Origin: an uncultured Clostridium sp.
GTDB lineage: Bacteria; Bacillota_I; Bacilli_A; RF39; UBA660
Direction: 5' to 3'
Assembly: GCA_946402315.1 (NCBI GenBank)
Contig: CAMIWC010000006.1
Location: 812 to 64,811, forward strand
Length of the DNA stretch: 64,000 nucleotides
Shown: piece after piece, positions 22,709 to 49,918 of the stretch
How positions within the stretch are numbered: the stretch's first letter is position 1
Layout of the letters: each line of letters starts with the position of its first letter
Program-made: the position numbers and the translations under genes
The notes under the pieces: generated by a model
The model's database searches: none
Seen by the model: the letters and a program-made list of their open reading frames with translations, nothing else
What the model was told of the DNA's origin: nothing

Positions 22709-24076
22709 ATGAAAAAGAAAATATTATTTAGTGTATTCTTAGTAGCTTTGTTTTTTGTACCATTTTTTGCTCGTGCTGATGAGTTAACTGCTGAAACATT
22801 TGCAGAATTAAAAGAACTTAATACGACTAATACTCATGTAACCTATACAGGAGCTACTTTGGATTTAACTGAAGATTTTGAATTAGTTGCTTTCTTAGAT
22901 ATTAAAGCTAATACTACACTTAATCTAAATGGACATACTTTATCTATTTCTGGACATGGTACTCAAGCTTATCCAGTAACTGTATTTGGTAATAGTTCAT
23001 TAACAATTAATGGTGCTGGTAATGTTCAAATAGCTGATATTTATGGATTTGCTACTGCTGGTAGTGGAAGTCCTAAAATAACTGTTAATGGAGGTACATT
23101 TACTCAAACTGGAGATTATTATATGTTTGGAGTATATGATGGAGAACTAATTATTAATGATGGAACATTTACTACTCCATATTGTGTAGCTAATAACTTT
23201 GGTGGTTATTATAGAATTCAAGGTGGTCAATATAGTGATATTCATGGAAAGATAACAATCAATGGTGGAACATTTACTACTACTGATGATTATGATATGA
23301 CATTTGCTACTTCAGATGTTTTAGTAATTAATGGTGGAACTTTTAATTCACAAGGTGAAGAGGGAACTACTGTTTATACTGAAGCTCCAGGAGAAACTAC
23401 TATTAATGATGGAACATTTAATGCTAGTGGAACTAATTCAGAAGTATTATATAATGACCAAGGAACAGTTACAGTTAATGCTGGAAACTTTAATAATCCA
23501 GTAACTGCTTATATTCCTAATTCATCAATAACTTATACTAATACTACTGGTGTTAATATAGTTGTTCCTAAAGATGAATTAGTTATTAAAGCTTTTGATG
23601 AACCAACTGATCCAACTGAAGAAGAAACAACCAAAGTAAATGCTGCATTAGAAGAAGGATTTGTAGTTGGTAAATATTACAATATTACTGCTTGGTTAAC
23701 AAATCCGGATGATAACACTAAAATTGAACAAGTAGAAGATTTAGAAAACGCTATTAATGTTACTTTAACTATTCCTGCTGATCTTCCTGAATTACAAGAA
23801 GGTTATACAAGAATTTTTAAAGTAATTAGAATACATAATGGTGAAGCAACTGTACTTAGTGTAGTAGATAATGGAAATGGTACTATTACATTCCAAACAG
23901 ATGTTTTCTCAACATATGTATTAACTTATGCTGATCAAGCACCAGCTGCTGATCCAGCAGAAGATAATACTAATAACCCTAATACTGCTGATAAGATTAT
24001 TCTTTATTTCAGTGCATTAGTTATTAGTGCAGCAGCCGTTACAATAACTGCTTTATATATTAATAGAGTATATTAA
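22709..24076 (+). CDS. Cell-wall-anchored beta-solenoid surface protein with an NPNTA sorting signal
   Basis: Signal peptide; repeated NGGTFT/NDGTFT turns. C-terminus is NNPNTAD (NPNTA at nt 23975-23989), a TM segment (IILYFSALVISAAAVTITALYI) and NRVY. A class-B sortase gene lies immediately downstream. Confidence 0.75.
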   Translation: MKKKILFSVFLVALFFVPFFARADELTAETFAELKELNTTNTHVTYTGATLDLTEDFELVAFLDIKANTTLNLNGHTLSISGHGTQAYPVTVFGNSSLTINGAGNVQIADIYGFATAGSGSPKITVNGGTFTQTGDYYMFGVYDGELIINDGTFTTPYCVANNFGGYYRIQGGQYSDIHGKITINGGTFTTTDDYDMTFATSDVLVINGGTFNSQGEEGTTVYTEAPGETTINDGTFNASGTNSEVLYNDQGTVTVNAGNFNNPVTAYIPNSSITYTNTTGVNIVVPKDELVIKAFDEPTDPTEEETTKVNAALEEGFVVGKYYNITAWLTNPDDNTKIEQVEDLENAINVTLTIPADLPELQEGYTRIFKVIRIHNGEATVLSVVDNGNGTITFQTDVFSTYVLTYADQAPAADPAEDNTNNPNTADKIILYFSALVISAAAVTITALYINRVY

Positions 24077-24130
24077 TAAAAAAATAATAGGCTAGCTTGT
24101 GCTAGTCTATTTTTGTTAGGAGAAGAGTAT

Positions 24131-24898
24131 ATGAAACGAAAAAAAGTTTTAAGAGTCCGTTTATGGGTTCTAATGTCAGTCATATGTGTAAGTTTATTTG
24201 GAGTAATATACTCTACAGTGAACATACTTCTATGGTGTTATAATGTTGAACAAAATAATAAGATTAGAGCTGAAATAAAAGAAGAATACGTTGAAGAAAT
24301 AATAATAGATCAAAATATTTCTGGTGTAGTTCAAAATGATTATTCAATTGATTTTGATTCGGTAAAAAAACGTAATAAAGATACAGTTGGATATTTAGTA
24401 GTTAATGGACTAGATGTATCTAATTTTATAGTTAAAGCTAAAGATAATGATTACTATTTAAAACATAATTTTGATAAGAAATATAGTTCTGCTGGATGGA
24501 TATTTGCTGATTATCATAATAAGTTTGATGGTAGTGATAAGAATATTATTATATATGGACATAATACTAAAAATGGAAGTATGTTTGGTACGTTGAAAAA
24601 TATATTTAATAAAGAATGGTATAGTAATGAAGATAATCTTGTATTGAAAATTATCACTCCAACTGGAGAATATAAGTACCGAGTATTTTCAACGTATACT
24701 ATTAAACCAGAAGATTATTATATAAATACTGAGTTTAAAAATAATAAAGAATATATTAAATTTGTAGAAACATTAAAGAAAAGATCTACTTATGATTTTA
24801 AAGTAGATACATCGAAGGTAACTCAAATACTTACGTTATCTTCATGTAGGAAAGAAGGAAAAGAAAGAGTAGTATTACATGCGATGAGACTAGATTAG
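24131..24898 (+). CDS. srtB: Class B sortase
   Basis: Start at ATG 24131 after aggaga. N-terminal TM segment. Motifs DTVGYLVVNG..., DNDYYLKHNF, IIIYGHN (His) and the catalytic LTLSSC. Confidence 0.85.
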   Translation: MKRKKVLRVRLWVLMSVICVSLFGVIYSTVNILLWCYNVEQNNKIRAEIKEEYVEEIIIDQNISGVVQNDYSIDFDSVKKRNKDTVGYLVVNGLDVSNFIVKAKDNDYYLKHNFDKKYSSAGWIFADYHNKFDGSDKNIIIYGHNTKNGSMFGTLKNIFNKEWYSNEDNLVLKIITPTGEYKYRVFSTYTIKPEDYYINTEFKNNKEYIKFVETLKKRSTYDFKVDTSKVTQILTLSSCRKEGKERVVLHAMRLD

Positions 24899-25004
24899 TC
24901 TCATCTTTTATTTTGATTGAAATTATTATGTTTTTTATTTATTTATCTTTTAATACATGATAAAATATATTATGAGTTAAAATCTAAAATAGAGGGTGAT
25001 TATT

Positions 25005-25541
25005 ATGAAAATTATTAAGACTATTGTTGTGGATACGTTAATAGGTATATGGTTCTTAGGAGCTTTAATATCTATTATATGTTTATTATCCTACAATGAG
25101 TTTGCGACTACTCAAATCGGTAACTATACATTGCTTATTATTGATAGTGATGATATGCAAGAAAAATATGGATATAAAGAAGGAGACTTACTTATTGTAA
25201 AAAGAACTTCTGATAAGAATATGAAAGTAGGAGATTCTGCTTTCTATTATGATGCCAGTAAGAAGAGTTCGGTACTTGTATATGCTGGTGAAATAGAAAG
25301 TATTACTCCAGTTACTCCAGCTGAATCTACTTTTAGAATTAGTGGAGTAAAAGTATCAGGAGAATATGTAATAGGTACTATGAATAAAGTAGGGGTATAT
25401 CATCATGCTGGTACTGTACTTAGTGTAATGACTTCTAAATGGGGATTTATGTTCTTTATCATATTCCCAACTTTATTCTTCATAATATATGAAGTAATGA
25501 TGATAGTTGAATCATTTAGAGAAGATAAGGATGAAGATTAA
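25005..25541 (+). CDS. SipW-like (S26B) signal peptidase paralogue lacking the catalytic Ser and His (pseudo-peptidase)
   Basis: It has the same length class and TM-core-TM topology as the two active paralogues at 26117 and 32231. However, IIDSDDMQEK replaces SGSMEP, VYAGEI replaces THR[IV] and SGVKVSGE replaces GDANN/GINN. Confidence 0.6.
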   Translation: MKIIKTIVVDTLIGIWFLGALISIICLLSYNEFATTQIGNYTLLIIDSDDMQEKYGYKEGDLLIVKRTSDKNMKVGDSAFYYDASKKSSVLVYAGEIESITPVTPAESTFRISGVKVSGEYVIGTMNKVGVYHHAGTVLSVMTSKWGFMFFIIFPTLFFIIYEVMMIVESFREDKDED

Positions 25542-25543
25542 TA

Positions 25544-26092
25544 ATGAAAAAAGTGCTTTGGATATTTGCACTATTTTGTCTACTTGCAACTATTATAGTT
25601 GTTCAAGATACTTTTGGATTATTTGAAACTAATTCAACCGCAACTAAAGACTTGGAAGTTGGTAGATGGAAGATATATCTAAATGATGAAGATATATCAT
25701 TAACTGAATCTATTACTTTGGATGATTTCGTTTATACTAATCCTAATCATGTAGAAAGTGGTTATTTTGCACCAGGAAGTAGTGCTGAATTTATTATAGA
25801 AATAGATGCTAGTGATACTGATGTAGCAGTAGACTATGATATCACAGTAGATGCTAGTTCGCTACAACCATATCCAAATATATCTTTTAGTATTATTGAT
25901 ATGGATACTAATCAATCATCTATTAATAATCATTTCTCTGGAATAATGAATTTAACTGATACTAATCGTGTTAAAAGATTAAAACTTAGTATTAACTGGG
26001 TTAATGATTCTGATTATGATGAAAACGATACTAGTATCATTGGACAAGATATTAAATTTATTTTAGATGTTCACTTTGAACAACACGTTTAA
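25544..26092 (+). CDS. TasA/camelysin-like secreted protein (small paralogue)
   Basis: There is a 2-nt gap after the previous gene. The signal peptide ends ...VVQDTFGLFETN. Further elements are GRWKIYLND, FAPGSSAEFIIEIDASDTDVAVDYDITV and a C-terminal FILDVHFEQ. Confidence 0.55.
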   Translation: MKKVLWIFALFCLLATIIVVQDTFGLFETNSTATKDLEVGRWKIYLNDEDISLTESITLDDFVYTNPNHVESGYFAPGSSAEFIIEIDASDTDVAVDYDITVDASSLQPYPNISFSIIDMDTNQSSINNHFSGIMNLTDTNRVKRLKLSINWVNDSDYDENDTSIIGQDIKFILDVHFEQHV

Positions 26093-26116
26093 AAAGAATA
26101 GAAAGTGAGGTGTCAT

Positions 26117-27028
26117 ATGAACCCGCTTAAAAAAGGTGTAAAAACAGTTTCTAATCTATTAACTGTAGGTTTGTTAATAGTATTAGTGCTTGTTATATAT
26201 GGTCGTTTAACGGTAACATTTTCAGAAAATAGTTATCCTAACTATTTCGGATATACATTTTTTGAAGTATCAAGCGGATCTATGGAACCTGCTTTATCTG
26301 TTAATGATGTAATCTTAGTTAAGATTGGATATGACAATTATAAAAAGGGAGATATTATTACTTATGTAAATGATAAAGGAGAAATAATAACTCACCGTAT
26401 AGTAATAGTTAATGCTGATACATTAACTGTTAAAGGAGATGCAAATAATACTATCGATACACCAATTCAAAAATCACAAGTAATTGGTAAAGTAGAAAGG
26501 GTTTATCCACAACTTAGTGTTTGGCAAAAAGTTATTACTGAACCCAAAATATTAATGGTATTATTTATTACTCTTCTAGCTTTTGATTTTGCTCTTTCTT
26601 ATGATGGAGAAAAGGATAAAGGTAAGAGTACTACTAAGAAAAAAGTAATTATTAGTAAAGAAAAAGAAGAGAAAAAAGAATTAGAAGAAATAAAAGAAAT
26701 AGAAGAAAAGAAAGAAAAAGTTAAAGAAAATAAAATAACTTCTGTTAAACCTGAAACACCTAGAATAAAAGTAAATGATTCAATAGATGTTGATGCATTA
26801 CTTGATTTTACTAAAAAGATAGATTTAGAAGAAATTAATAAAGCGCTTGATAAAACAGTTAAATTAAATAAAAAGGAAATGACTGAATTAAAAGAAAAGA
26901 TAGATAGTATTGATGAAAAGAAACCAGTACTACCTAAGTTAGAACAAAAAGAAAGGGAATTTATTGAATATACAATTAGATTAGATTTAAAAGCTATTCA
27001 AAAAAATGTTAAAAATAAAGGGAAGTAG
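26117..27028 (+). CDS. sipW: SipW-type signal peptidase I (S26B) with a long K/E-rich C-terminal extension
   Basis: Start at ATG 26117 after gtgaggtg. Elements are an N-terminal TM segment, SSGSMEP, ITHRIV, KGDANN..D and a second TM segment. About 150 aa of a lysine/glutamate-rich predicted helical tail follow. Confidence 0.8.
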   Translation: MNPLKKGVKTVSNLLTVGLLIVLVLVIYGRLTVTFSENSYPNYFGYTFFEVSSGSMEPALSVNDVILVKIGYDNYKKGDIITYVNDKGEIITHRIVIVNADTLTVKGDANNTIDTPIQKSQVIGKVERVYPQLSVWQKVITEPKILMVLFITLLAFDFALSYDGEKDKGKSTTKKKVIISKEKEEKKELEEIKEIEEKKEKVKENKITSVKPETPRIKVNDSIDVDALLDFTKKIDLEEINKALDKTVKLNKKEMTELKEKIDSIDEKKPVLPKLEQKEREFIEYTIRLDLKAIQKNVKNKGK

Positions 27029-27036
27029 GTGCGAAT

Positions 27037-27624
27037 ATGAAAGAATTATTAAATAATTTTGATAGAAAAATGTTATTTCGTTTATTAATTCTTTCATGTA
27101 TGGTAATTATTACAATGCTTTCTGTAAGACATTTTAAGTTTACTGAATCTAAATATGAAACTAGAACTGAAGTAGAAATAGTACCAACTATAGCTTTCTT
27201 TATAGCTGATGTTAAAAGTTATAATGATTCTATTAAGTTAGAGGAAATAGTACCTAGAAGTACTCCTTACTTATATTCTTTTACAGTATCTAATTTCCAA
27301 GGAGATAAAAAAGCTAATGTAGATTTAACTTATAGTATTGAGTTTATTACTACAACTAATTTACCTTTAAATTATAAATTATATAGAGGTAATGACTTAG
27401 AACATGATATTACTTCTAGTACTAGTTATACTACTGATGACGATGGAATGTATTATAAACGTTTATATATAAGTGAAGTATCTACTTTAAGATATAATGC
27501 AGAGAATACCGATACTTATGTTTTAAGTGTAGAGTATCCTTTAACTTATCAAAATAATCCTGATGATTATTCTGGAGTAGTAGAACTAATAGAAATATAT
27601 GTTCATGCTGAACAGGAAGTGTAA
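27037..27624 (+). CDS. TasA-like / membrane-anchored beta-sandwich paralogue
   Basis: N-terminal hydrophobic segment ending SVRHFKFTES. Further elements are YLYSFTVSNFQGDKKANVDLTYSIEF and a C-terminal IEIYVHAEQ. Confidence 0.45.
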   Translation: MKELLNNFDRKMLFRLLILSCMVIITMLSVRHFKFTESKYETRTEVEIVPTIAFFIADVKSYNDSIKLEEIVPRSTPYLYSFTVSNFQGDKKANVDLTYSIEFITTTNLPLNYKLYRGNDLEHDITSSTSYTTDDDGMYYKRLYISEVSTLRYNAENTDTYVLSVEYPLTYQNNPDDYSGVVELIEIYVHAEQEV

Positions 27625-27626
27625 TT

Positions 27627-28592
27627 ATGAAGAAGTTAAAGTTAAAAGACAATGGTGTTAAAAGAATTATTATCTTAGTACTTATAATTATACTTGTAAT
27701 ATCTATACCTACTTTAGGTAAGTTTATCTCTAAAAAATTCCATGAATTCTATTTAAATAGTAAACATTTCTATTTTTATAGTAATAGATTAAAAGAAGAT
27801 AATCCTTTATATCAAGTTAATAACTGGTCAGGAGTAGGTTCTTTTGAAATAGAATTTGATTTATCTTCAGAAAAAAACAGATATACTTATGCAGATTATG
27901 ATATTGAATATGAATTATCAGTAGAATGTTCAGATACAGTTAATTGTGAATTAAGTGAAGAAGACGGAGTACTATATAGTACTAATCCAAATCACCAAAA
28001 TACTATAACAGTTTCAGTTACTCCTGATAATGTTAGCTTTGAAGAGGGAGATAGTGTTACCATTGAAATAACTGCTCAAAGTACAAGTCCTTACAAGAAA
28101 ACTATTAGTGCAACGTTTGAATATATTGTAGGTAAGAGTGGAGTAACATATGAAATAGATGATGAACCAGGAAGAAGTTATATTATACTTACATTAACTA
28201 ATGCTATTTCATATTGTACTGTTGTTGAAGACTTCGGAGATTATGAAGTGGGAGATCGTATAGATAGAGATGTTTTTGTTACTTTGAATTCTAATGATAG
28301 AAAAAAATGTAAAAGTCAAATTATTAATCTTTCTATTCCGACTGGATATGTCATTGTAGATAATACTAGTTCTATTTTTGATATCGCAACTTATTCAGCT
28401 CCATCAGGAGGGCCAATTATTGGTGGAATTCGTTATATTAATAAAATGGAGTTCTGGATTGATCCATCTAGTGCACTAGCTATTAGATTTTATAAAAGAG
28501 ATGTTGATGAAGATTATACTTATCCTTTTGGAAATTATGAAAATAGTATTATAACTGTTACTATTTCAGATCCTGATAGAGATAGAGGATAA
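27627..28592 (+). CDS. TasA-like / membrane-anchored beta-sandwich paralogue (larger)
   Basis: N-terminal TM segment (RIIILVLIIILVISIPTLGKF), then SFEIEFDLSSEKNRYTYADYDIEYELSV and a beta-rich remainder. The gap from the previous stop is 2 nt. Confidence 0.4.
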   Translation: MKKLKLKDNGVKRIIILVLIIILVISIPTLGKFISKKFHEFYLNSKHFYFYSNRLKEDNPLYQVNNWSGVGSFEIEFDLSSEKNRYTYADYDIEYELSVECSDTVNCELSEEDGVLYSTNPNHQNTITVSVTPDNVSFEEGDSVTIEITAQSTSPYKKTISATFEYIVGKSGVTYEIDDEPGRSYIILTLTNAISYCTVVEDFGDYEVGDRIDRDVFVTLNSNDRKKCKSQIINLSIPTGYVIVDNTSSIFDIATYSAPSGGPIIGGIRYINKMEFWIDPSSALAIRFYKRDVDEDYTYPFGNYENSIITVTISDPDRDRG

Positions 28593-28604
28593 TTGGAGGT
28601 ATTT

Positions 28605-29582
28605 ATGGACTATAATATAGTTTTAAAATATATTTCATTTGTAAAAAGAGAATATTTAGACTTTTTTAGTATTTTGTTCCGTAATAAATACCAAAAGAAG
28701 TTATTTGAAGAATTTATGGATTCTTATATTCTTGTTCGTTATTATAATGAAACTGATTTTCATAATGAAAAAGATTTCATGGTACGTATTAATAAGGAAC
28801 TAATTAAAATATATGAAAAAAATAAAAACATATATGATGAAGATTTATTAAGAAATATAGTAGCGTTATTTGCTTATGTAGTATACTTTGATGATGTATA
28901 TGAAGATGAAAATAGTGCTAGTTTAATAGATGATTTAGTACAAGATGAAAATATTCAGATTAAAGATAAAGAAGAATTAAAAGAACAATTACTTGATTGG
29001 TACTTAGATCTTAAAGAAAATAAAGAAAAGTTTCATAATACTATTAATACGAAAGAGTTCTCTATCTTTAAGAAGAGAGTAAGTACTAAGACTTATGAAA
29101 TTACTCTTGATCATAATGTAAAGATTTCTAATCTTTATAGTGATTACGCTATTAATAAGGCGTTTAATAGTCAAATAGTTAATGAAGATAAAGAGTTTGT
29201 TATGGCAATACTTACTAGTCATGAAGTATTAAAAAATGCTATTAACTTAGATTTTACTAAGAGATATATTTTTGAATTAGTACCATCTATTGTTGAAAAA
29301 GAGAAAAAAATGAAAAGATTATTCTCTATCTTAGATAATCCTTTATCTAAAAGATATATATCTGCTAAAATAACATATGAAGATTATTTAAATAATAAGA
29401 GTATATATGATAGTTATATAGTAGATGGATATTCATTCTCTGTAGTAATTGATTCTAAGTTTAAAGGAAATATTAAGAGTTTAGTATTATTTACTTATAT
29501 TTATATATCAGAGAATAATGAATATTATAAAGATATAGTTAATGCTAAAAAGGAGCTTATGCCAAAAATAATTGTATATTAG
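28605..29582 (+). CDS. Cytoplasmic protein of unknown function inside the SipW/TasA-like operon
   Basis: Start at ATG 28605 after ggagg. No TM segment or signal peptide. The protein is helical, Y/K/E/D-rich and carries no recognisable motif. Confidence 0.5.
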   Translation: MDYNIVLKYISFVKREYLDFFSILFRNKYQKKLFEEFMDSYILVRYYNETDFHNEKDFMVRINKELIKIYEKNKNIYDEDLLRNIVALFAYVVYFDDVYEDENSASLIDDLVQDENIQIKDKEELKEQLLDWYLDLKENKEKFHNTINTKEFSIFKKRVSTKTYEITLDHNVKISNLYSDYAINKAFNSQIVNEDKEFVMAILTSHEVLKNAINLDFTKRYIFELVPSIVEKEKKMKRLFSILDNPLSKRYISAKITYEDYLNNKSIYDSYIVDGYSFSVVIDSKFKGNIKSLVLFTYIYISENNEYYKDIVNAKKELMPKIIVY

Positions 29583-29591
29583 GAGGTATTT

Positions 29592-31118
29592 ATGGATACT
29601 TTTTTAAGATTTTTATATGAATTTTTATCTCAGTTTTTTGGAGGATTTATTCTATTCTTTAGAGGATTATTTAAAGGTTTAGGAATGATGTTTAATTTCC
29701 CTGCTTACCTTGAAATAATTCATGAGTATAAGAAGGATTTATCAATGCCAGAATGGATACTTGTATTTATTGCGGTATTAATAATATTATTAGTACTTGG
29801 ATTAATTGTATTCATGGTAGTGTTCTTAATCCGTAAATACATTAGAATACGTAAGTCATTAGTAGATCAAGAGTCCCTTCTAGAAGAAGTTGCTAATTTA
29901 AATAATGAAGTAGCTAAACTTTATAAAGAAAAAGAAGAAATACTTTCTATGAAAGTATCCAAGTTAGGACTTAAACCAACTGAATCTGATACTGAAGAAG
30001 AAAGTACTAGTTCTTCTGATAATACTGTTGATACTAATGATATTAGATTCCCTAAATTATATGAAGTTGATCAAAAATATGCTAATTATAAAGTACAAAA
30101 CTACAACAATGCCTTTGACTTGCCAGAATTAGTAGATATGTTTAGAAACTTTGCTGCTAGTGAATTAAGATTGTATTATCGTGAAAAGATGATTCGTTTA
30201 TTTATTGCGGCATTATCTTCAACTAAACTCGTAATTCTACAAGGTATTTCTGGAACAGGTAAAACTTCACTTGCTTATGCTTGGGGAAAATTTTTAAAAC
30301 ATGACTCTTGTATCGCATCTGTTCAACCATCTTGGAGAGATCGTACTGAGTTGTTTGGATATTTCAACGAATTTACTAAGAAGTTTAATGAAACAGAAGT
30401 ATTAAAAGAGATATATCAAGCTGGATATACTGATGATGTATATACAGTTATCTTAGACGAGATGAACATCTCTCGTGTTGAGTACTATTTTGCTGAAATG
30501 TTATCAATACTAGAGATGCCTAATAAAGATGAATGGATTGTTGAAATTGTTCCTAGTGCATGGAAGAGTGACCCAGTTCATTTAATTGAAGGTAAAATGA
30601 AGATACCACCTAATGTATGGTATATCGGTACAATCAACAACGACGACTCTACATTCATGGTAACAGATAAAGTATATGACCGTGCTATGCCTATTGATAT
30701 TAACGATAAAGGAGAAGTATTTACTCCTAAAGAAATACCAGCTCAAGATATTAATTACTCGTATTTGAATAAGTTATTTGAAGATGCTATAAATAATTTC
30801 CCAATTCATGAAGATGTACTTCAAAAAGTAGATGAAATGGATGACTATGTTATTAAGCATTTCCGTATAGCTTTTGGTAACCGTATTGTTGCTCATATGC
30901 GTAAGTTTGTTCCTGTATATGTAGCTTGTGGTGGAGATGAAATAGACGGAATAGATTACTTTATAGCTCGTAAGATTTTAAGAAAATTTGAACAATTAAA
31001 TATTGCATATATTAGAGATGAAATTGATGGCTTTGTTAAATTCCTAAATGATGAATTTGGTGAAGGAAAGATGGCTGAATGTATAGAATATCTATTAAGA
31101 CTTAAGAAAATGTCATAG
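29592..31118 (+). CDS. Membrane-anchored McrB-like AAA+ (AAA_5) GTPase
   Basis: aggagg RBS. Two N-terminal hydrophobic segments and a short coiled coil. Walker A GISGTGKTS, QPSWRDRTELFGY, Walker B VILDEMN, GTINNDDS at the position of the McrB N-x-x-D element, then DRAMPI. Confidence 0.75.
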   Translation: MDTFLRFLYEFLSQFFGGFILFFRGLFKGLGMMFNFPAYLEIIHEYKKDLSMPEWILVFIAVLIILLVLGLIVFMVVFLIRKYIRIRKSLVDQESLLEEVANLNNEVAKLYKEKEEILSMKVSKLGLKPTESDTEEESTSSSDNTVDTNDIRFPKLYEVDQKYANYKVQNYNNAFDLPELVDMFRNFAASELRLYYREKMIRLFIAALSSTKLVILQGISGTGKTSLAYAWGKFLKHDSCIASVQPSWRDRTELFGYFNEFTKKFNETEVLKEIYQAGYTDDVYTVILDEMNISRVEYYFAEMLSILEMPNKDEWIVEIVPSAWKSDPVHLIEGKMKIPPNVWYIGTINNDDSTFMVTDKVYDRAMPIDINDKGEVFTPKEIPAQDINYSYLNKLFEDAINNFPIHEDVLQKVDEMDDYVIKHFRIAFGNRIVAHMRKFVPVYVACGGDEIDGIDYFIARKILRKFEQLNIAYIRDEIDGFVKFLNDEFGEGKMAECIEYLLRLKKMS

Positions 31119-31127
31119 GTGATAATC

Positions 31128-32234
31128 ATGAAGGATATTAAGGTAGTAGATTTATATAAGAAAGCTAATGAAGATAGAGTAGATAAGTTTATCGAAAACA
31201 CTAGATCTAGTCTTATGGTTGATAAAGACTTAAAGAAAGTAGAAGTAGACTTTGAATGGTTAGATTTAATGGAAAATACTATTCAATATTTAGATAATAT
31301 TTTAAGAAATCCTAATCGTTTTATCATTAATGAAGAAGAAGTAGTTAAAGTAGAACTTGCTAGAAGAATTACTGTAGATAGCATTAAACATCTAGCTAGA
31401 CATACAAACTACATTCAAGAGATAAATGAAGATGATGAAGTAAAACCATCTAAGATTCTTAATATTAATAAAGATGAAAGTTATGATACCTATGAAAATA
31501 GATTTATCTTTACTCTTATTCAAAATATGGAAAGTTTTCTTGAAATTAAAAAGAAGAGTTTATTATTATCTTCTAGTTTAAGAGATGTTAAGAAATGTGA
31601 GTATCATGCTAAGAGTAAAGTAGGTCTAGAACAAATATCAATGGAGATTAATTTTACTTCTAGTTTGATTGATCAAAAAGAACCAGAAGGAGATACTCCT
31701 ATCGCAACTAGAATTCAAAGATTAGATGATAATATTAAAATGCTTACTAGTAGTGAAGTATATAAAACTTTAAAATCTATGCATGTTGCTAAAGTAATAC
31801 CTCCTATTAAAAAGACTAATGTTATTTTGAAAAATACTAACTTCCAATATGCAATGATATTATGGGATTACTTACAAGAACATGTTGCTGATGCTAGTAA
31901 AGTAGTTAAAGAAAACAAAAAATATGAAGATAATGGTATTCTTAAAGAATATATTAATAATACATTTTTGCTTAATTATTTAGCTATGAATACATTAAGT
32001 GAAGAATCTCCAATTAGTGATAGAGAAGAAGTTATAGAAGAACTTACTGATAACTTAATTCAAAAGATAGTAGAGTTAAATGTAGATTTACCTTTATCTG
32101 CACTTAAAGATAAAATTGGAGAAAAGATTGCAATTACTAAGTATAAAAAAGAAGCAAGTCTATATGAGATTCAAAATACATTTTCTGAGCATATTAAGAA
32201 TTACTTAGAAAAGATAGAAAGTATTAGTATATGA
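31128..32234 (+). CDS. McrC/DUF2357-like partner protein without an intact PD-(D/E)xK nuclease
   Basis: Start at ATG 31128 after aggtga. It carries the McrC-family D-T-x-E-N-R-F-[IV] element (DESYDTYENRFIFTLIQ). Near the C-terminus only a relic-like EKIAITKYKK is present, with no acidic catalytic residue. The stop overlaps the next start (ATGA). Confidence 0.6.
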   Translation: MKDIKVVDLYKKANEDRVDKFIENTRSSLMVDKDLKKVEVDFEWLDLMENTIQYLDNILRNPNRFIINEEEVVKVELARRITVDSIKHLARHTNYIQEINEDDEVKPSKILNINKDESYDTYENRFIFTLIQNMESFLEIKKKSLLLSSSLRDVKKCEYHAKSKVGLEQISMEINFTSSLIDQKEPEGDTPIATRIQRLDDNIKMLTSSEVYKTLKSMHVAKVIPPIKKTNVILKNTNFQYAMILWDYLQEHVADASKVVKENKKYEDNGILKEYINNTFLLNYLAMNTLSEESPISDREEVIEELTDNLIQKIVELNVDLPLSALKDKIGEKIAITKYKKEASLYEIQNTFSEHIKNYLEKIESISI

Positions 32235-32758
32235 AAAAAATATTTAGATTAATATTAATAATTATATTATTTATAATATTAGGAATTATTATATTTCAAA
32301 GAGTAACTCATAATAAATTAGCTCTAGGTAATTTTTATATTTTTGAAATTATATCTGGATCTATGGAACCGGTTTATAAAGCTGGGGATGTTATATTAGT
32401 TAGAAAATGTGATTATGAATCAATAAATATAGGGGATGATATTACTTATTTGGGTAGTGAAGGTAATTTAAAAGGTTTAATAGTTACCCATAGAGTAATA
32501 GAAAAGTTTGATTATGAAGGAAAACATAAGATAAAGACTAAGGGTATTAATAATGAAGTAGAAGATCCGGTTATAAATGCTGATCAAGTATATGGAAAAG
32601 TAATTTATAGGACAATTCTATTTAGTTTAATGGGTAAAATTATGACTAATAAGGTTGCTTACTTTATGATTTTTGCTAGTGTATCCCTAGTATTTTCTTA
32701 TGAGTTTATATCATATTTCTTCTTAGATAATGATGATGAGGATGATGAAGAAGAATAG
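32231..32758 (+). CDS. sipW: SipW-type signal peptidase I (S26B)
   Basis: N-terminal TM segment, ISGSMEP, VTHRVI, KGINNEVED, a C-terminal TM segment and an acidic tail DNDDEDDEEE. Confidence 0.8.
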   Translation: MKKIFRLILIIILFIILGIIIFQRVTHNKLALGNFYIFEIISGSMEPVYKAGDVILVRKCDYESINIGDDITYLGSEGNLKGLIVTHRVIEKFDYEGKHKIKTKGINNEVEDPVINADQVYGKVIYRTILFSLMGKIMTNKVAYFMIFASVSLVFSYEFISYFFLDNDDEDDEEE

Positions 32759-32784
32759 ATAGATAGAGTGTGGTGATGTTGTTC

Positions 32785-33414
32785 ATGAAAAAGAACAAGA
32801 AGAAGAAAAAGTTAGTTAGAATTCACCAATTATTGTTACTAATAATGTTACTTTTAGTTAATTCAACAGCGTGGTTTATTTATGTAAATACTGTTGAAAA
32901 TACTATGAATGTCCATGTTAAAGCTTGGGATGTAACATTTGAAGCGGGGGATTCGGAAATAGTTGATATGGTTGAAGTAACAGTAGATGATCTATATCCA
33001 GGAATGGATGATTATACTTATGACTTAACTGCTCATAACCGAAGTGAAGTTTCGGCAACTCTTACTTATGAAATATTACAAGCTAATATTTTAGGAGATC
33101 TTGTAATAACTAAAGAAGGTAGAGCAGAAAGACATGAAACAGCATTAGAAACAGATCCTACTAGTGCAGAACTTGAACTTCAATTAAAAGAAGATTATCC
33201 TTTTGAGATAACCTTCGATTTAACTAATTCTATTATGAACTCTGGTAATGGGAGTTCGGTTTATTCCGTTAATGTAGTTTGGCCTTATGAACAAGGTAAT
33301 GATGAACTAGATACAGAGTGGGGAATAGCTGCAGCTACTTATAAGAGCCAATATCCAGCAGAACCATCTATCGTTTTAATGATAAAAATAAAAATTACTC
33401 AAAATGCTAGTTAG
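32785..33414 (+). CDS. TasA/camelysin-like secreted protein
   Basis: Start probably at ATG 32785 (MKKNKKKKK), though 32776 is also possible. The signal ends LLLVNSTAWFIYVN. Further elements are KAWDVTFEAG, LYPGMDDYTYDLTAHNRSEVSATLTYEI and a C-terminal IKIKITQ. Confidence 0.55.
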   Translation: MKKNKKKKKLVRIHQLLLLIMLLLVNSTAWFIYVNTVENTMNVHVKAWDVTFEAGDSEIVDMVEVTVDDLYPGMDDYTYDLTAHNRSEVSATLTYEILQANILGDLVITKEGRAERHETALETDPTSAELELQLKEDYPFEITFDLTNSIMNSGNGSSVYSVNVVWPYEQGNDELDTEWGIAAATYKSQYPAEPSIVLMIKIKITQNAS

Positions 33415-34000
33415 CTTTTTGAGTAAAGTTAAGAGCGACTTTAACGCTTGCTACGCCGTTTGATGCAGCAGATGTATCAGCGGCATTATTCATTGTTTCT
33501 CCTGTACCATCATACCATTCAATGAAAATACGATAAGTATTATTATTGTTAGTATTAGATAGATTATGTGTTGTAGTGATAGTGTTGCTTGTACCATCGA
33601 ATAGGATAGTATCACCATCATTTATTTTATATCCAACTATTCTTAAATCAGAAATAGTATTATCATCTCCTGGAGTAATAGTAATAGTTTGATTATAAGA
33701 AACTTCTACTCTTGTTGAATCTATTACTAAATCAAAGTATCCAGTACTTGTAGGAGCGATTACACCAGTGCTGATATTATCATTAGCATCATAAGTAGGA
33801 ACTAAAGTATTAGTAAAACTACTTCCAGAGACAACGTCTATGTTATTAACTTTAAATGTCCATTCAGCAATTGTAAATTTACCAGTAGCGTTTGTTGATG
33901 AAACATATTTAGCGTATGATGTTTGCATCATTTCGATAAGAAGGCATAATAAAGCACAAGCAATTACTAATCTTATTTTACGATTATTAATTACATTCAT
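33407..34000 (-). CDS. TasA/camelysin-like secreted protein (convergent and separately transcribed)
   Basis: ggagg RBS on the minus strand. The signal ends EMMQTSYAKYVSS. Further elements are AEWTFKVNN, IAPTSTGYFDLVIDSTRVEVSYNQTITI and a C-terminal VKVALNFTQ. Its tail overlaps the 32785 gene tail-to-tail by 8 nt. Confidence 0.55.
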   Translation of the reverse strand: MNVINNRKIRLVIACALLCLLIEMMQTSYAKYVSSTNATGKFTIAEWTFKVNNIDVVSGSSFTNTLVPTYDANDNISTGVIAPTSTGYFDLVIDSTRVEVSYNQTITITPGDDNTISDLRIVGYKINDGDTILFDGTSNTITTTHNLSNTNNNNTYRIFIEWYDGTGETMNNAADTSAASNGVASVKVALNFTQKAN

Positions 34001-34221
34001 AGATATTCGCCTCCATTCTCATTTTTATTATACAAAACAAATGTCAAGATTTAAATATATATATGTAAATATTTTTGTAAATTTACACTTAATATATACA
34101 TGTTGTATATATTGTTGTAAACATATGCTTTTGAAATTAAAAATATTGATTTTTGCAATATTTGTAGTTTATAATTATTATGTATGATAGATAAGTATAT
34201 CGTGCATGTGTTGGTGATGTT

Positions 34222-34935
34222 ATGGCAAGAGAAGTAGTTGTTAAAGCAGATCAAGTTAAGAAACGTAAGAGAAGATCAAGAATAATAAAGCTATCATTAC
34301 TTTTTTTACTGTTACTACTCACAGTGTTATATATAATTTTAAGAGTTATATATAACGAGGGTAGATTTACAATTACACTTGATTCTAATGATACTTTGAA
34401 AAGTGGACTTGCAATATTTGAGAGTTTAAATAATTCTCAAGGAAAAAGAAAACTTGAAGCAACACCGGTAAAATTTATGGATAACATATCTTATAAGTGG
34501 TTACCAGAAAATATTGATACAGAAGCTGATGGACCTCACAATGGTAAAAACTACATAGCATATAGTTTCTATGTGGAGAACCAAGGAGAAGAGGTACTAA
34601 ACTATTGGTATGAAGTATACATAGATGATGTTATTAAAAACGTTGATGAAGCTGTTCGTATAAGAATATACAGAAATGGTGAATATGTTACTTATGCTAA
34701 AAAGAATTCGTTGGCTAATGAACCTGAAGAAGGTACCGTAGCATTTAGAGAGGATGTTAAAAGTAAAGAAAGAATAGTCATACTGGAACAAGTAAAAGAT
34801 TTTAAACCAGACGATTTAGATCGTTTTACAATAGTAATATGGCTAGAAGGGGATGACCCTGATTGTGTTGATGCTATAATAGGCGGAGAATTAAAAATGC
34901 ACATGAAGTTTACTGAAGAACATATTGAAAATTGA
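34222..34935 (+). CDS. Membrane-anchored/secreted protein sharing a C-terminal W-[LI]-E-G-x-D-x-D-C motif with the next gene
   Basis: Basic N-terminus plus a TM segment (LSLLFLLLLLTVLYIIL). Also YAYSFYVENQGEEVLNYWYEV and IVIWLEGDDPDC. Confidence 0.5.
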   Translation: MAREVVVKADQVKKRKRRSRIIKLSLLFLLLLLTVLYIILRVIYNEGRFTITLDSNDTLKSGLAIFESLNNSQGKRKLEATPVKFMDNISYKWLPENIDTEADGPHNGKNYIAYSFYVENQGEEVLNYWYEVYIDDVIKNVDEAVRIRIYRNGEYVTYAKKNSLANEPEEGTVAFREDVKSKERIVILEQVKDFKPDDLDRFTIVIWLEGDDPDCVDAIIGGELKMHMKFTEEHIEN

Positions 34936-34949
34936 TGGGAGTTGAAAAA

Positions 34950-35957
34950 ATGAGTACAAATAAAAAGAAAAAAAGAAAAGAGAAAAAATTAAGATCATTA
35001 TTTCTACTATTATTTTTAACAATAATTATGTTAGGAACTGCAACTTATGCATGGTTCACAGCCAATCAAGTTGTAACAATTCAAGCTTTAGACTTACAAG
35101 TTGAAGCTAGTAATGGTCTACAAATATCAACAGATGCTGTAACATGGAAATCAGTAATTACTAATGCTGATATTACTACTGGAGCATATAGTGGTGCTGT
35201 TAACCAAGTTCCAACATCAGTTACTGCTGTATCAAGTGATGGTACTGTAACAAGTGGTAAGATGAATATGTACTTAGGTACAATTACAAATGACCAAACT
35301 ACAGGAGATTATCTAATCACTTCTACAAAACAAACTGATGTAGCTGGTTCTAATGGATACTACATTGCATTCGATGTATTCCTAAAAACTGATACAACTC
35401 AAGAAGTATTCTTAGCAGGAACTTCAAATGTAAGCCATAAAGCTGTTCAAATCGCAGGTACTGATGAAGAAACTACTGATAAAGGATTAAAGAATTCTGC
35501 TCGTGTAGGATTTGTAATTCTTGGTCATGGTGCTTCAACTGATTCAGTTAGTACATTAACTGGATTATCTAATGCTAATGCTACTAGTGCAATCATTTGG
35601 GAACCAAACTATACATCACATACATCACAAGCATTAATAGTTGCTGCTGAGTATGGTGTTACTGCATCAACAAGTTCAGCTACTGCTTATCGTGGATTAA
35701 ATAAAGAATTCTCTGAAGGTGATTTAAAGAAAACTGTTAAAGGAGAAGGTACAGAAGCAGGATATGCTACTGCTATGAGTCCAGCTATTCAAACAGCTGA
35801 AGGAAATACTGATAATCATTCATTCGCAACATTACAAGCAGGAGTTACTAAAGTTCGTATTTATATGTGGATTGAAGGACAAGATATCGATTGTGAAAAC
35901 AATGCAACTGGTACTGATATCTCATTCAACGTATCATTTACAACTGCAACATCTTAA
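34950..35957 (+). CDS. TasA-like secreted protein with a SipW-type signal peptide; candidate major subunit
   Basis: Start at ATG 34950 after gggag. N-terminus is MSTNKKKKRKEKKLRSLFLLLFLTIIMLGTATYAWFTAN, the class of signal described for TasA-type SipW substrates. The mature part is T/S/A/G-rich. Also YMWIEGQDIDC. A strong terminator follows directly. Confidence 0.6.
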   Translation: MSTNKKKKRKEKKLRSLFLLLFLTIIMLGTATYAWFTANQVVTIQALDLQVEASNGLQISTDAVTWKSVITNADITTGAYSGAVNQVPTSVTAVSSDGTVTSGKMNMYLGTITNDQTTGDYLITSTKQTDVAGSNGYYIAFDVFLKTDTTQEVFLAGTSNVSHKAVQIAGTDEETTDKGLKNSARVGFVILGHGASTDSVSTLTGLSNANATSAIIWEPNYTSHTSQALIVAAEYGVTASTSSATAYRGLNKEFSEGDLKKTVKGEGTEAGYATAMSPAIQTAEGNTDNHSFATLQAGVTKVRIYMWIEGQDIDCENNATGTDISFNVSFTTATS

Positions 35958-35966
35958 TAAGATTTA

Positions 35967-35993
35967 AAAGAAGGTTAATACCTTCTTTTTTTT
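35967..35993 (+). terminator. Intrinsic terminator closing the TasA-like locus
   Basis: Stem aaagaagg/ccttcttt with loop ttaata, then a T-run. Confidence 0.7.
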
Positions 35994-36023: not shown

Positions 36024-36680
36024 ATGAAAAAATATTTAAACATAGTACTAGTATTTGTTTTAGTATTATTAGTTAGTGCTTGTGGGAAAAAGGAAAATAA
36101 TACAGCAAAAGAAAAAACAATAACAGTTGATGAAGATATGATAATTACCTACAAGATAGATGCTCCTTACTACGGAGACATTAAAATAGGAAGTGTTTCT
36201 TTTGATATGTTAAGTACAAATGCTATGCTTAAGGAAAAGAATATTGAAAATAATTATTTTAGAGTAGCTGGATACAAAGTAAAAGGTACAGATGATAACT
36301 TCTTCTATGAAACAATAAAGTATGATGACTCTTATGAAGTTGAGTTTGTAGCTCACAGTGATTACTATGAGAAAGTTGGTTGTGAAGATTGTGATGAGCA
36401 ATTAGTATCTAGTCTTGAACTACCTAAAGGAATAACATTTAATTCAACTGCTGATGACGTTATTAAAGCTTATGGTGAAGCAAACGAGAAAAACGACTAT
36501 GATGATAATAGTTACCAATGGAGTGAAAAGACTGATGGTGAAAAATTAGGTGGAATTCAATCTAACGAATTAACATATAACTATAAAACAGATAAAGCAG
36601 AAATGAGACTTGAATTATGGTTTTCTAAAAGTACTGGAAAACTACATAGAGTTAGATACATCATTGAAGTTAAAAAATAA
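36024..36680 (+). CDS. Lipoprotein, function unknown
   Basis: Lipobox LLVSAC-GK after a hydrophobic N-terminus. Confidence 0.65.
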   Translation: MKKYLNIVLVFVLVLLVSACGKKENNTAKEKTITVDEDMIITYKIDAPYYGDIKIGSVSFDMLSTNAMLKEKNIENNYFRVAGYKVKGTDDNFFYETIKYDDSYEVEFVAHSDYYEKVGCEDCDEQLVSSLELPKGITFNSTADDVIKAYGEANEKNDYDDNSYQWSEKTDGEKLGGIQSNELTYNYKTDKAEMRLELWFSKSTGKLHRVRYIIEVKK

Positions 36681-36897: not shown

Positions 36898-38406
36898 ATG
36901 AAAGATGCTTTAATAGAAAAATATGATGAATTTAAAAACGTTTTAGATGTTATGCCTACTAACAATAAAGAAAATAAACAAAAAAAATATGAATTTATAA
37001 AAGAAGAAGAAAACTTTAATGAAAAGTTTCTTAAATTAGTAAATGAAGAAATAGAATTAAGAAAATCTAGAATAAATAATCTAGTAGTAAATGAAGTTAT
37101 TTCAGAAAAAGAAAATGAACTAAATGGTTTAACATCTTTATTGTGGAATGAATATAATACTTCATATGAGAAATTAGAATTAGATTATTACTTATATAAA
37201 TTAACTAATTATAAAGACAATTTATCTAGAGTAAATGAATGTATTAGAAAGATTATAGATAATTTTAATCATGTAGGAATAGAAATAACTAGTAAGATGT
37301 TTAATTACAATAGATACGTAAGAGAATACATTGATACAGTACTAACTACTACAGATGAAGAATTATTAAAGACTAAGTTCGAAGAATTATATTGGAAATA
37401 TCCAGAATTAATTAAAACATTAGAAATTAGTTTTAAAGGGATTTATCTAAAGAATCAAAAGACTATAGATAAGTTCTACGATGATAAATATGCTGCTTTC
37501 TTAGCTAATAACAATGTTAAAGAAATAAAGAATAATATTATTAATCTTAGTGATGAAATTAAAATTCTTAAGAATAGTGATCCTGCTTTAATATTTGAAA
37601 AGTTTAGAAATAAAGAATATGCATTAACTACTTATAGTGGAGTAGCTATAGACAAGAAAAAGACTAATTATTTTGGAGATAATTTTTCATATGATAATTT
37701 AGTTAAATTATATAAATCTTTAAAAGAGTACTATCTAATTACTAAGTATGATTATATTTTAAAAGATATGAAAACTAGACTTGAAAATAAAGATACATAT
37801 AAAGGTAAAATGGATGCTTGCTTAAAAGATTTATTAAAAGTAGAAACTAAAGTAATAGGTCTTTCTGGATTAGAAGAACAAAAGAGTAAGTTCCCATTTT
37901 TTAAAAAGAAAACAGTACAAGATGATAAGACTTTATTTGAGTATAAGAATGCTTTAAACGAACTAATTGCTAAGTATAATGAATTAGATGATTTAAGATT
38001 TAATGATATTATCTCTAAAAAACTTGAAAAAGATAGTTCTATCTTAAAAGTATTTAATTTAATATCTGGAAATTATTTATATTTCTTAAATAGAGTACTA
38101 GAAAATGTAGATGGTATTAGTGTTGATGAAGTAGATAGATTATTTGAAGAATTAAATACTGAGATTATTAGTAGTAATTTTTACTTATTAGATAATACAG
38201 CTTTACTTGATGAAAAACAAATGAAAGAGTTAATAGTAGATCGTTATCGACTTGATAATATTAATATAACTACTGCTGCTTTAGAGAAAGAAAATATAGA
38301 AGGTACTATGGAAGATATTAAGACTCTTCTTAAGTATGAAAATATGGTACGTTCTGGTATTAAGTTTGAAGATATAGAGTTTATCTTAGAGTGTGATAAA
38401 ATGTGA
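36898..38406 (+). CDS. Cytoplasmic all-helical K/E/N-rich protein of unknown function
   Basis: 502 aa with no signal peptide or TM segment and no catalytic motif. A palindromic terminator (gtgatttt/aaaatcac) follows. Confidence 0.5.
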   Translation: MKDALIEKYDEFKNVLDVMPTNNKENKQKKYEFIKEEENFNEKFLKLVNEEIELRKSRINNLVVNEVISEKENELNGLTSLLWNEYNTSYEKLELDYYLYKLTNYKDNLSRVNECIRKIIDNFNHVGIEITSKMFNYNRYVREYIDTVLTTTDEELLKTKFEELYWKYPELIKTLEISFKGIYLKNQKTIDKFYDDKYAAFLANNNVKEIKNNIINLSDEIKILKNSDPALIFEKFRNKEYALTTYSGVAIDKKKTNYFGDNFSYDNLVKLYKSLKEYYLITKYDYILKDMKTRLENKDTYKGKMDACLKDLLKVETKVIGLSGLEEQKSKFPFFKKKTVQDDKTLFEYKNALNELIAKYNELDDLRFNDIISKKLEKDSSILKVFNLISGNYLYFLNRVLENVDGISVDEVDRLFEELNTEIISSNFYLLDNTALLDEKQMKELIVDRYRLDNINITTAALEKENIEGTMEDIKTLLKYENMVRSGIKFEDIEFILECDKM

Positions 38407-46352: not shown

Positions 46353-46423
46353 AAACTTCTATAAATTGATTATAGAAGTTTTTATATTGTAATAATTTTG
46401 TTATAATGAAATAGGTGATAAGT

Positions 46424-49545: not shown

Positions 49546-49598
49546 AACTTGAATTTAATAATTTAAGTTCTTTTTTTATGCAAATTTATTTTTTTCAT

Positions 49599-49627
49599 TT
49601 GACAAGAAAAATCAAAATCATTATTAT
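49599..49627 (+). promoter_or_regulatory. Sigma-A-type promoter for the adhesin gene, giving a leader of about 285 nt
   Basis: TTGACA (49599-49604), 17-nt spacer, TATTAT (49622-49627). Confidence 0.5.
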
Positions 49628-49918
49628 AGTAAGTCAATCGAAAACATATTGGATGTAATAGGTGCTTATGAAAGAGACCCTTTCTAAATTAAACTAATAA
49701 TGAATGCTAAAACTTTATTAGGAAATTAAATAAGCATATTCAATTGAAACTTGTAAAGAGAGACCCTTCTATAGAATAGTGCAAGTTCTATAGCGAGTCT
49801 ATTATCAGAAAATGTTTTACGAGATTTTAGGGGAAAGTTTTGGTTGAATTACAGAAGAATATATATTAATAGTACTCTTCTTAATTCATAAAGAAACGAA
49901 AGATTAAGGAGAGGAAAA

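Follow-up and report, generated by a model that had tools for sequence, protein, structure and literature searches.

The stretch of DNA analysed here (hereafter the window) comprises 64,000 nucleotides of contig CAMIWC010000006.1 (positions 812 to 64,811 of the forward strand; assembly GCA_946402315.1) from an uncultured Clostridium sp., and is low in G+C (23-32%). It holds a locus of 15 genes, extending over ~21 kb from 24996 to 46352, in which genes for exported proteins, SipW-type signal peptidases and an McrB-like GTPase lie together. Thirteen open reading frames (ORFs) are listed between 24996 and 35957 and are here called g01 to g13; two further + strand genes, x15 (36898-38406) and x16 (38505-46352), complete the locus. 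The original prediction, made from the letters of the window alone, had closed the locus at 35957, taking in its first two-thirds, and thereby cut off these two genes, both of which are conserved. The upstream boundary is a + strand terminator-like hairpin (24883-24905) located 3' of a sortase B gene, and the downstream end is marked by a thymidine kinase gene (46415-47008).

The first ten ORFs occupy the + strand from 24996 (25005 if the likely ATG of g01 is used) to 33414. They are separated by gaps of -4 to +12 nucleotides when the longest ORFs are taken and of -4 to +26 nucleotides when ATG starts are used; the gap between g07 and g08 is 0-9 nucleotides and g08 and g09 overlap by 4. A hairpin scan gave no convincing + strand terminator inside 25005-33414, only a weak 8-bp stem at 33236-33258, and together with the ORF listing this bears out the originally described series of ten packed genes, preceded by the sortase terminator and uninterrupted by another. 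Also as described, a convergent minus-strand gene follows (g11, 33407-34000), overlapping g10 by 8 nucleotides, and then a two-gene unit (g12-g13, 34222-35957) behind which a bidirectional terminator-like hairpin is found at 35966-35989. The AT-rich divergent intergenic region at 34001-34221 presumably carries the promoters for g11 on the minus strand and for g12-g13 on the + strand. A minus-strand terminator-like hairpin at 33190-33216, within the 3' part of g10 and ~190 nucleotides downstream of the g11 stop, may stop the convergent transcript of g11 there. Between 22000 and 47000, Rfam models matched no riboswitch and no other RNA element.

A species-representative genome collection (one genome per species) has relatives of g13 at 429 places, and 80 non-duplicate loci, fetched with 10-kb flanks, were inspected. 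A relative with a 56% identical g13 has all 13 genes arranged and oriented as in the window. All 13 families were present in the fetched stretch of 22 of the 80 loci, and g07 in 53; the other loci either run into a contig end or the limit of the 10-kb flank, or have their blocks permuted. The blocks run 01-02-03-04, 05-10, 11(-)-12-13, a protein of ~500 amino acids and a giant protein in the window, and giant, ~510 amino acids, 01-02-03-04-13 and 01'-05-10 in the second arrangement. Two pairs of contigs (L020/L069 and L034/L082) show that, where the GTPase block seems to be missing from a locus, it lies outside the fetched flank. Gene content is conserved in every fully readable related locus, and gene order is conserved apart from the block permutations; the whole order, embedded cytoplasmic genes included, is thus kept across many genomes, which favours the original prediction. 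The linkage of signal peptidases to the McrBC-like gene pair is retained in 47-53 related loci, and g11 stands on the minus strand in nearly all relatives. The hosts of all 80 inspected loci are uncultured gut, rumen or intestinal metagenome-assembled genomes, labelled Bacilli, Erysipelotrichaceae, Tenericutes, Clostridium sp. CAG and similar, some of them evidently mis-binned, and the related host genomes are small (~1.25 Mb).

Three of the genes encode proteins of the signal peptidase I type. Against TIGR02228, the model for archaeal-type signal peptidase I (MEROPS S26B; cut-off 51.85 bits), g03 (26105-27028, + strand) and g09 (32231-32758, + strand) scored 77.8 and 85.3 bits, respectively, both above the cut-off, and g01 (24996-25541, + strand) scored 24 bits (E 2.9e-5), below it. 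Active sites were read from an alignment of 195 homologues from related loci. The residues S59, H97, D112 and D118 of g03 are all retained in 66/66 orthologues. The orthologues of g09 keep the Ser and the His in 55/56 cases each and the distal Asp in 56/56, while I, T, V or L stands in place of the proximal Asp. The catalytic residues of g01 are gone in 70-73 of its 73 orthologues (Ser is kept in 3, the distal Asp in 1 and the His in none). By score and alignment, g03 and g09 are bona fide active archaeal/SipW-type signal peptidases, so that the two complete catalytic sets and the third, degenerate copy recognised in the original prediction were upheld. Since g01 is conserved, has a SipW-like fold with the same topology of two transmembrane segments as g03 (in g01 at both ends) and heads each module in related genomes, it is read as a conserved pseudo-peptidase and not as a decaying gene. 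The scores of g03 (69 bits), g09 (54.9) and g01 (18.3) on the Bacillus SipW equivalog NF046067 lie far under its cut-off of 190 bits, and g03 and g09 are therefore SipW-type enzymes but not SipW orthologues. It must be noted that g03 also has a K/E-rich C-terminal tail of ~140 amino acids (residues ~165-307, 26600-27028) that follows the second transmembrane segment and is predicted to be cytoplasmic. This tail is weakly conserved in sequence and shorter in some relatives, the protein of locus L001 having 261 amino acids.

Seven proteins are predicted to be exported: g02 (25544-26092, small and pilin-like), g04 (27037-27624, small and beta-rich), g05 (27627-28592, 321 amino acids, exported or membrane-anchored), g10 (32770-33414), g12 (34222-34935, signal-anchored) and g13 (34932-35957, likely ATG 34950) from the + strand, and the pilin-like g11 from the minus strand. 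All have a basic N-terminus and a single N-terminal hydrophobic segment, and the motifs quoted for them in the original prediction were found in all seven. The pattern [TSN]-x-[AGS]-x-[FY] stands at the end of the hydrophobic segment in 7 of the 29 signal-anchored ORFs of the window, exactly these seven, and in 0/22 of the others. The pattern is a post hoc one. Neither its place in the proteins nor its retention in orthologues is a matter of chance. The orthologues of g13, which has the best TasA-like signal motif, read T-Y-A-W-F-T-A-N (87-98% conserved), those of g11 [TS]-Y-A-K-Y, those of g10 N-[TS]-[FY]-A-W-F and those of g12 G-x-F-T (94-98%), the conservation of the motif being 87-98% across these four families. 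The corresponding elements are [TS]-[YF]-[GA]-[LV]-F-E-[TS] for g02 (T-F-G-L-F in the window), T-x-[SA]-[RK]-[YF]-E-[ST] for g04 and [TS]-[FL]-[GA]-[RK]-[YF] for g05. At the matching place Bacillus subtilis TasA has G-T-W-A-A-F-N-D, and A28, right after T-W-A, is the first residue of the TasA fibre chain 8aur. On TIGR04088, the model for the SipW-dependent type of signal (cut-off 19 bits; TasA control 38 bits), the N-terminus of g13 scored 14.5 bits (E 0.031) and two g13 homologues, P0028 and P0034, 16.5 bits (E 0.007), all under the cut-off, and g02, g10 and g11 gave no match. On inspection, all seven families keep the core T-aromatic-[AGS]-x-[FY]. Some g13 homologues carry the JGI annotation 'SipW-like signal peptide'. 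Within g13, conservation is highest in the segment right behind the predicted cleavage site, as is expected of a donor strand. Of the original prediction, the dedicated SipW-type peptidases and a TasA-type cleavage motif in all seven exported proteins are supported.

The relationships among the seven were compared by hhalign with signal peptides trimmed. By this comparison, g02 and g11 are clearly homologous (probability 99.6%, E 8e-25), and g02 is a founding member of what we call the g02/g11 family. The exported pilin-like protein g10 probably belongs to the same family (81%, E 1.2e-5, 135 colinear columns), and g04 is possibly a distant member, as suggested by its alignment to a diverse g02 profile (E 1.1e-3, 20%, 138 colinear columns). 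Similarity between g12 and g13 (73%, E 3e-5) is restricted to 33 C-terminal columns around a shared W-x-E-G-x-D-x-D-C motif, and g05 has no hhalign link to any of the others and weak immunoglobulin (Ig)-like Pfam hints only. Consequently the claim of seven paralogues does not hold beyond the firm pair, the probable and the possible member, and of the features said to be shared by the mature parts those of g02, g11, g10 and g04 stand while their extension to all seven does not. Iterated hidden Markov model (HMM) merging placed g02, g04 and g11 in one set and g10, g12 and g13 in another; these sets were not taken as paralogy because trimming showed them to be largely driven by the N-terminal anchors.

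The g02/g11 family is large, with at least 2679 clusters at 50% identity (E<=1e-3), and is absent from Pfam; for g13, ~2000 homologues were found. A g02-type domain also stands N-terminally in far longer proteins (P0181, P0186, P0286 and P0299). Its fusion partners are BspA-type leucine-rich repeats, DUF4874 with DUF4832 and ephrin-receptor-like Cys repeats, and one g02-domain protein of 3424 amino acids ends in an FGE-sulfatase domain. Such N-terminal fusions are what a module plugging cargo into a fibre would show, and the g02/g11 family seems to supply adhesins and enzymes with an N-terminal module for incorporation into fibres. PDB sequence searches with profiles of g13, g02/g11, g04, g05 and the 138-member family of diverse g02 relatives returned nothing meaningful, the sole matches of the exported families being a de novo designed Ig domain (E 0.001) and chance matches.

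The genes of the putative subunits duplicate readily. Two copies of g13, in tandem or one per module, are present in L031, L068, L020/L069 and L034/L082, two g11-like ORFs in L023 and L024, and extra 03-02-02 units downstream in L059 and L064.

AlphaFold2 (AF2) models were made for g02 and g13. The g13 model has a pLDDT (predicted local distance difference test) score of 87 and a predicted template modelling score (pTM) of 0.82, with residues 31-42, following the anchor, as its only disordered part. The model of g02 is mediocre (pLDDT 71.6), and in both models the segment right after the anchor is the only part with a pLDDT below 50. The Foldseek matches of g02 are led by donor-strand subunits, which also recur further down: FimG (E 1.5e-4, probability 1.0), the TasA fibre 8aur_A (E 4.6e-3, probability 0.84, template modelling scores 0.30/0.25, from the model of pLDDT 71.6) and the AbpA bundling pilus 7ueg (E 9e-3), with PapK, PapH, CupB6, CsuA/B and CanA also listed. 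This supports a g02 family that works like a donor-strand pilin; membership of the TasA family is not established by it. The donor-strand-pilin-like fold of the g02 model supports the original prediction; the g13 model, which does not resemble TasA, does not.

Between these genes lies cytoplasmic machinery that includes an McrBC-like pair. The g07 protein (29592-31118, + strand) is a membrane-anchored, coiled-coil McrB-like GTPase of the AAA+ class, with one strong transmembrane segment (56-74), a coiled coil and then the AAA+ domain. Residues 194-370 match E. coli McrB (PDB 6hz4, E 3e-4) in an alignment that takes in both Walker motifs (B reading D-E-M-N) and the region of the N..D signature. 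Designed coiled coils are matched by residues 69-122, and the PADLOC candidate defence model PDC-M26A is matched at E 1.8e-34. The signature G-T-I-N-N-D-D-S-T fits N-x-D followed by D and can also be aligned ungapped to N-T-A-D of E. coli. The FtsB-like architecture of a transmembrane segment and coiled coil is present in g07; homology to FtsB itself is sub-threshold, with FtsL PF04999 seen in 18, FtsL_2 in 13 and DivIC in 4 of 44 g07 orthologues. The adjacent g08 (31119-32234, + strand) is a homologue of the McrC N-terminal domain, scoring 47.3 bits on PF09823 (DUF2357; cut-off 23.3). With a median identity to its orthologues of 71%, g07 is the most conserved of the genes, the others ranging from 27 to 54%; it is a core component and not a passenger. 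Upstream of the GTPase gene, always and in fixed order, stands g06 (28593-29582, + strand), a cytoplasmic protein of 329 amino acids with an unassigned fold that is found in 52 loci. The cytoplasmic x15 protein (502 amino acids) is conserved beside the giant gene and likewise occurs in 52 loci, as does g05. Neither g06 nor x15 has a transmembrane segment or a family match in Pfam, NCBIfam or PADLOC, PADLOC returned nothing for g08 and g05 either, and g06, g08 and x15 are mutually unrelated by hhalign.

The giant protein x16, present in 56 loci, is an exported G/N/T/S-rich repeat protein of 2615 amino acids with one N-terminal transmembrane segment. It has 23 [VIFL][YF]GG repeats, and G, N, T and S each make up 9-12% of the sequence. 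No Pfam match was obtained at E<=0.1 despite the glycine-rich repeats, which probably represent an uncatalogued repeat of the beta-helix type. The N-terminal anchor is followed by a weaker [TS]-[FL]-[ST] element; the signal region alone resembles the exported proteins, with no pilin-like domain at the N- or C-terminus. It is presumed to be an adhesin or another fibre-associated giant.

Taken as a whole, these observations are best explained by a conserved locus that builds a cell-surface fibre, an interpretation that we hold to be probable though far from certain. Sec would export the precursors, their signal anchors would keep them in the membrane, and g03 and g09 would cut them behind the small residue of the common motif. 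The N-terminal strand set free in this way, which is highly conserved, would then insert into the next subunit by donor-strand exchange. The main subunit would be g13, as suggested by its own promoter region, strong terminator, good ribosome-binding site and tandem duplicates in some relatives, with g02, g11, g10 and possibly g04 as minor subunits, x16 as the adhesin and g01 as a partner that binds substrates or serves as a scaffold for the active peptidases without cleaving. Major, minor, anchor and tip roles of this kind, already proposed in the original prediction, we infer only. The notion of a multi-subunit, SipW-dependent fibre was nevertheless right in spirit, whereas its filing under TasA/camelysin was wrong and its extent incomplete.

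One may further speculate on the role of the McrBC-like module. A hexamer of g07, stimulated by g08 and acting with g06 and x15, could by GTP hydrolysis at the membrane gate or drive the peptidase-mediated release of subunits and the extrusion of the fibre across the wall of a Gram-positive-type cell, and the coupling could run via coiled coils, the K/E-rich tail of g03 being a candidate contact. That an McrBC-derived GTPase ring (g07, g08, g06 and x15) is the motor or gate of a donor-strand-exchange fibre, in extrusion or in retraction, is a tentative proposal that we put forward as the less likely part of the model.

Several points weigh against the fibre interpretation. All the evidence is computational and no filament has been seen. 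Known TasA-type donor-strand fibres, to our knowledge, need no nucleoside triphosphatase (NTPase), which leaves the role given to g07 and g08 without direct precedent. The TasA/camelysin models PF12389 and NF046066 gave no match at E<=1 to any of the seven exported proteins, nor did PF12389 to 65 members of the g02/g11 family (E<=1) or to 138 diverse g02 relatives (E<=0.1). Against a TasA profile of 120 sequences, the best hhalign result was that of g10 (probability 11%, E 0.0026). In structure comparison, g13 has no PDB match at E<=0.001, the best being the thread of S. acidocaldarius (E 0.047), and the matches of g02 have template modelling scores of only 0.3-0.4 from a mediocre model (pLDDT 71.6). 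The N-N-D-D of g07 fits the NxD signature of its presumed clade, discussed below, ambiguously.

The strongest of the alternatives is a system for the secretion, processing and anchoring of a surface coat or of the giant protein without donor-strand polymerisation, in which g13 would be a coat or lattice protein and the small exported proteins membrane- or wall-associated accessory factors. We consider this unlikely. In line with it, g13 matches no solved fibre subunit, a pilin fold is not demonstrated for g04, g05 or g12, linkage of the giant protein is constant, and relatives within the TasA superfamily such as AbpX form lattices and not simple pili. The specific match of the g02 model to donor-strand subunits, the post-cleavage segment being the best-conserved part of g13 and the fusion of g02-family domains to adhesin-type domains elsewhere are better accounted for by the fibre.

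An expanded TasA/camelysin (Peptidase_M73) operon for biofilm matrix, with seven SipW-processed TasA paralogues and the cytoplasmic genes as an add-on, corresponds to the original prediction and is in our view very improbable. The SipW-type peptidases, the TasA-like cleavage motif and the TasA fibre among the Foldseek matches of g02 agree with it, and the hhalign alignments to TasA, although weak and non-significant, lie where the topologies correspond, at the L-x-PG region and at the final strand, which ends in Q-[YW]-x-G. In the positive controls, TasA scored 513.8 bits on NF046066 and PF12389 was present in all 120 listed TasA homologues. The absence of PF12389 from the seven, from the 65 g02/g11 members and from the 138 relatives removes the label 'TasA/camelysin-like'. 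The hhalign probabilities against the TasA profile, 11% for g10 and at most 2.5% for all other families, were not significant; comparison of the family profiles with TasA alone was not significant either. The g13 model does not resemble the TasA jellyroll (TasA is not within its top 50 PDB matches), kinship extends to only some of the seven, and g07 and g08 are the most conserved genes and no add-on. Of the proposed HMM checks, the S26-type model recognised g03 and g09, PF12389 recognised nothing and TIGR04088 scored g13 and its homologues near its cut-off of 19 bits (14.5-16.5).

We give equally little credence to an McrBC-derived conflict or defence system akin to the CoCoNuTs, whose effectors, decoys or receptor-masking factors would be the exported proteins and peptidases. 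The matches of g07 to PDC-M26A and McrB, the DUF2357 of g08 and the placing of the CoCoPALM class beside predicted defence systems by Bell et al. (eLife 2024, PMC11090510) would be in line with such a function. Yet g08 has no recognisable effector, with no nuclease family match, no evident conserved PD-(D/E)xK-like motif and no family match at all in its C-terminal 220 residues, and g07, whose N-terminus is the transmembrane segment and coiled coil, showed no domain for the binding of DNA or RNA. High conservation and a fixed gene content in many genomes of ~1.25 Mb are unlike patchy defence islands, and the bulk of the coding capacity is spent on exported beta-rich proteins. A phage-tail or capsid origin is argued against by g13 lacking a fold match in the PDB and, at E<=0.001, among viral structures. 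A type IV pilin reading was rejected, as the motif follows and does not precede the hydrophobic segment, and no prepilin-peptidase family was matched among the ORFs of the locus in Pfam or NCBIfam scans.

The neighbouring genes do not extend the locus. Directly upstream (22709-24898 region) a class B sortase (TIGR03064, 162.7 bits) is preceded by a secreted protein of 455 amino acids that ends in N-P-N-T-A-D and a hydrophobic tail and is likely its substrate. The sortase was rejected as a member because relatives do not keep it with the locus, only one related locus having it alongside, and the gene of its substrate is likewise not conserved there. None of the exported proteins of the locus has a C-terminal hydrophobic segment; with no conserved linkage to a pilus sortase and no C-terminal anchor on the subunits, a sortase-dependent Gram-positive pilus was also dismissed. 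Between g13 and x15 a lipoprotein gene (36024-36680, 218 amino acids) looks like a lineage-specific insertion, since no homologue was found at that place in 83 related loci. Past the thymidine kinase gene follow a protein of 539 amino acids (47063-48682) without a Pfam match and, as far as tested, unrelated to the locus, and then a second sortase-domain protein (245 amino acids) and a surface protein of 690 amino acids with Cna_B and MucBP domains (48808-51991), which are a separate conventional wall-anchored adhesin unit.

The maintenance of a 21-kb locus in genomes of ~1.25 Mb implies an important role in attachment or colonisation, in hosts that are abundant uncultured Bacilli of the gut and rumen. 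The assembly of TasA-superfamily fibres is regarded as independent of an energy source, a view that is challenged when the best-conserved gene is a membrane-anchored GTPase derived from a restriction system, and the locus offers a concrete case for testing it. If the proposal is true, this would be the first NTP-driven donor-strand pilus machine, with a restriction-enzyme motor repurposed for the assembly of a surface organelle, and such a machine would be present in a large, uncultured, genome-reduced clade of gut and rumen Bacilli. Independently of mechanism, the analysis defines the substrate motif, a conserved pseudo-peptidase partner and, in g02/g11, a very large protein family missing from Pfam.

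Among known systems, McrBC type IV restriction shares with the locus the AAA+ GTPase domain (g07) and the McrC N-terminal domain, the activator of McrB (g08). It differs in that g07 has no DNA-binding domain and g08 no PD-(D/E)xK nuclease, that g07 is membrane-anchored and that the pair is embedded among genes for exported proteins, so that the locus is not a restriction match. The chaperone-usher pilins FimG, PapK and CsuA/B, in which a donor strand completes an otherwise incomplete Ig-like fold, are the best matches of the g02 model; no chaperone or usher is found here and the template modelling scores are 0.3-0.4, which indicates an analogy of fold and not membership. The host has sortases, and so probably a wall of the Gram-positive type.

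Within the B. subtilis operon tapA-sipW-tasA, SipW processes TasA and TapA, which form biofilm fibres. The locus resembles it in the archaeal-type signal peptidase beside its substrates, in the T-aromatic-A|x-F cleavage motif and in a donor-strand fibre as the likely product. It has, in contrast, 15 genes and not 3, two active peptidases and a dead one, a GTPase module, substrates outside PF12389 and no detectable TapA homologue. The sipW-bsaA-bsaB-bsaC operon of C. perfringens similarly combines SipW with several remote TasA-like paralogues; BsaA polymers form by donor-strand exchange, are membrane-anchored and are apparently helped through the wall by the NTPase machine of type IV pili. In Pfam and NCBIfam scans of all ORFs, by contrast, neither the BsaA model TIGR04090 nor TIGR04089 was matched, no von Willebrand A protein is present, and the putative energy module is McrBC-like and lies inside the locus. 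The AbpA, AbpX, Tafi, thread and cannula systems are also encoded by multi-gene loci, and g02 matches AbpA and CanA while g13 has the thread as its best match. In loci of the AbpX type, a signal peptidase I stands together with tip proteins, minor subunits and a signal-peptidase-accessory protein, the last being DUF5305 and not a pseudo-peptidase as here. The matches to these families are structural ones. No NTPase is reported for their loci: the word 'ATPase' does not occur in the AbpX preprint or in the AbpA paper, the latter reporting one non-conserved predicted GTPase in the AbpA operon.

The closest counterpart is the class CoCoPALM, named in the McrBC survey of Bell et al. (eLife 2024, PMC11090510), its description being deferred there to a forthcoming paper. 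According to these authors, CoCoPALM has an McrB-like GTPase with an FtsB-like transmembrane segment and coiled coil, an adjoining McrC homologue and linked genes of the signal peptidase family thought to act in pilus assembly, and the clade carries an NxD and not an NxxD GTPase signature. A literature search gave no follow-up paper, and the supplementary files of the CoCoNuT paper hold no details of the class. With an McrB-like g07 carrying a transmembrane segment and coiled coil, a DUF2357 protein directly adjacent and three S26-type homologues, the architecture of the locus matches CoCoPALM on every feature tested, the NxD signature being ambiguous. The published account does not contain the families of exported substrates, the cleavage motif that they share, the permutations of modules or the pseudo-peptidase, giant and 502-amino-acid proteins. 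The class was already named but without description; new here are the substrates with their motif, the pseudo-peptidase and the giant protein, together with the modular permutations and the extreme conservation of the GTPase, providing sequence-level content for a label that has so far been a name only.

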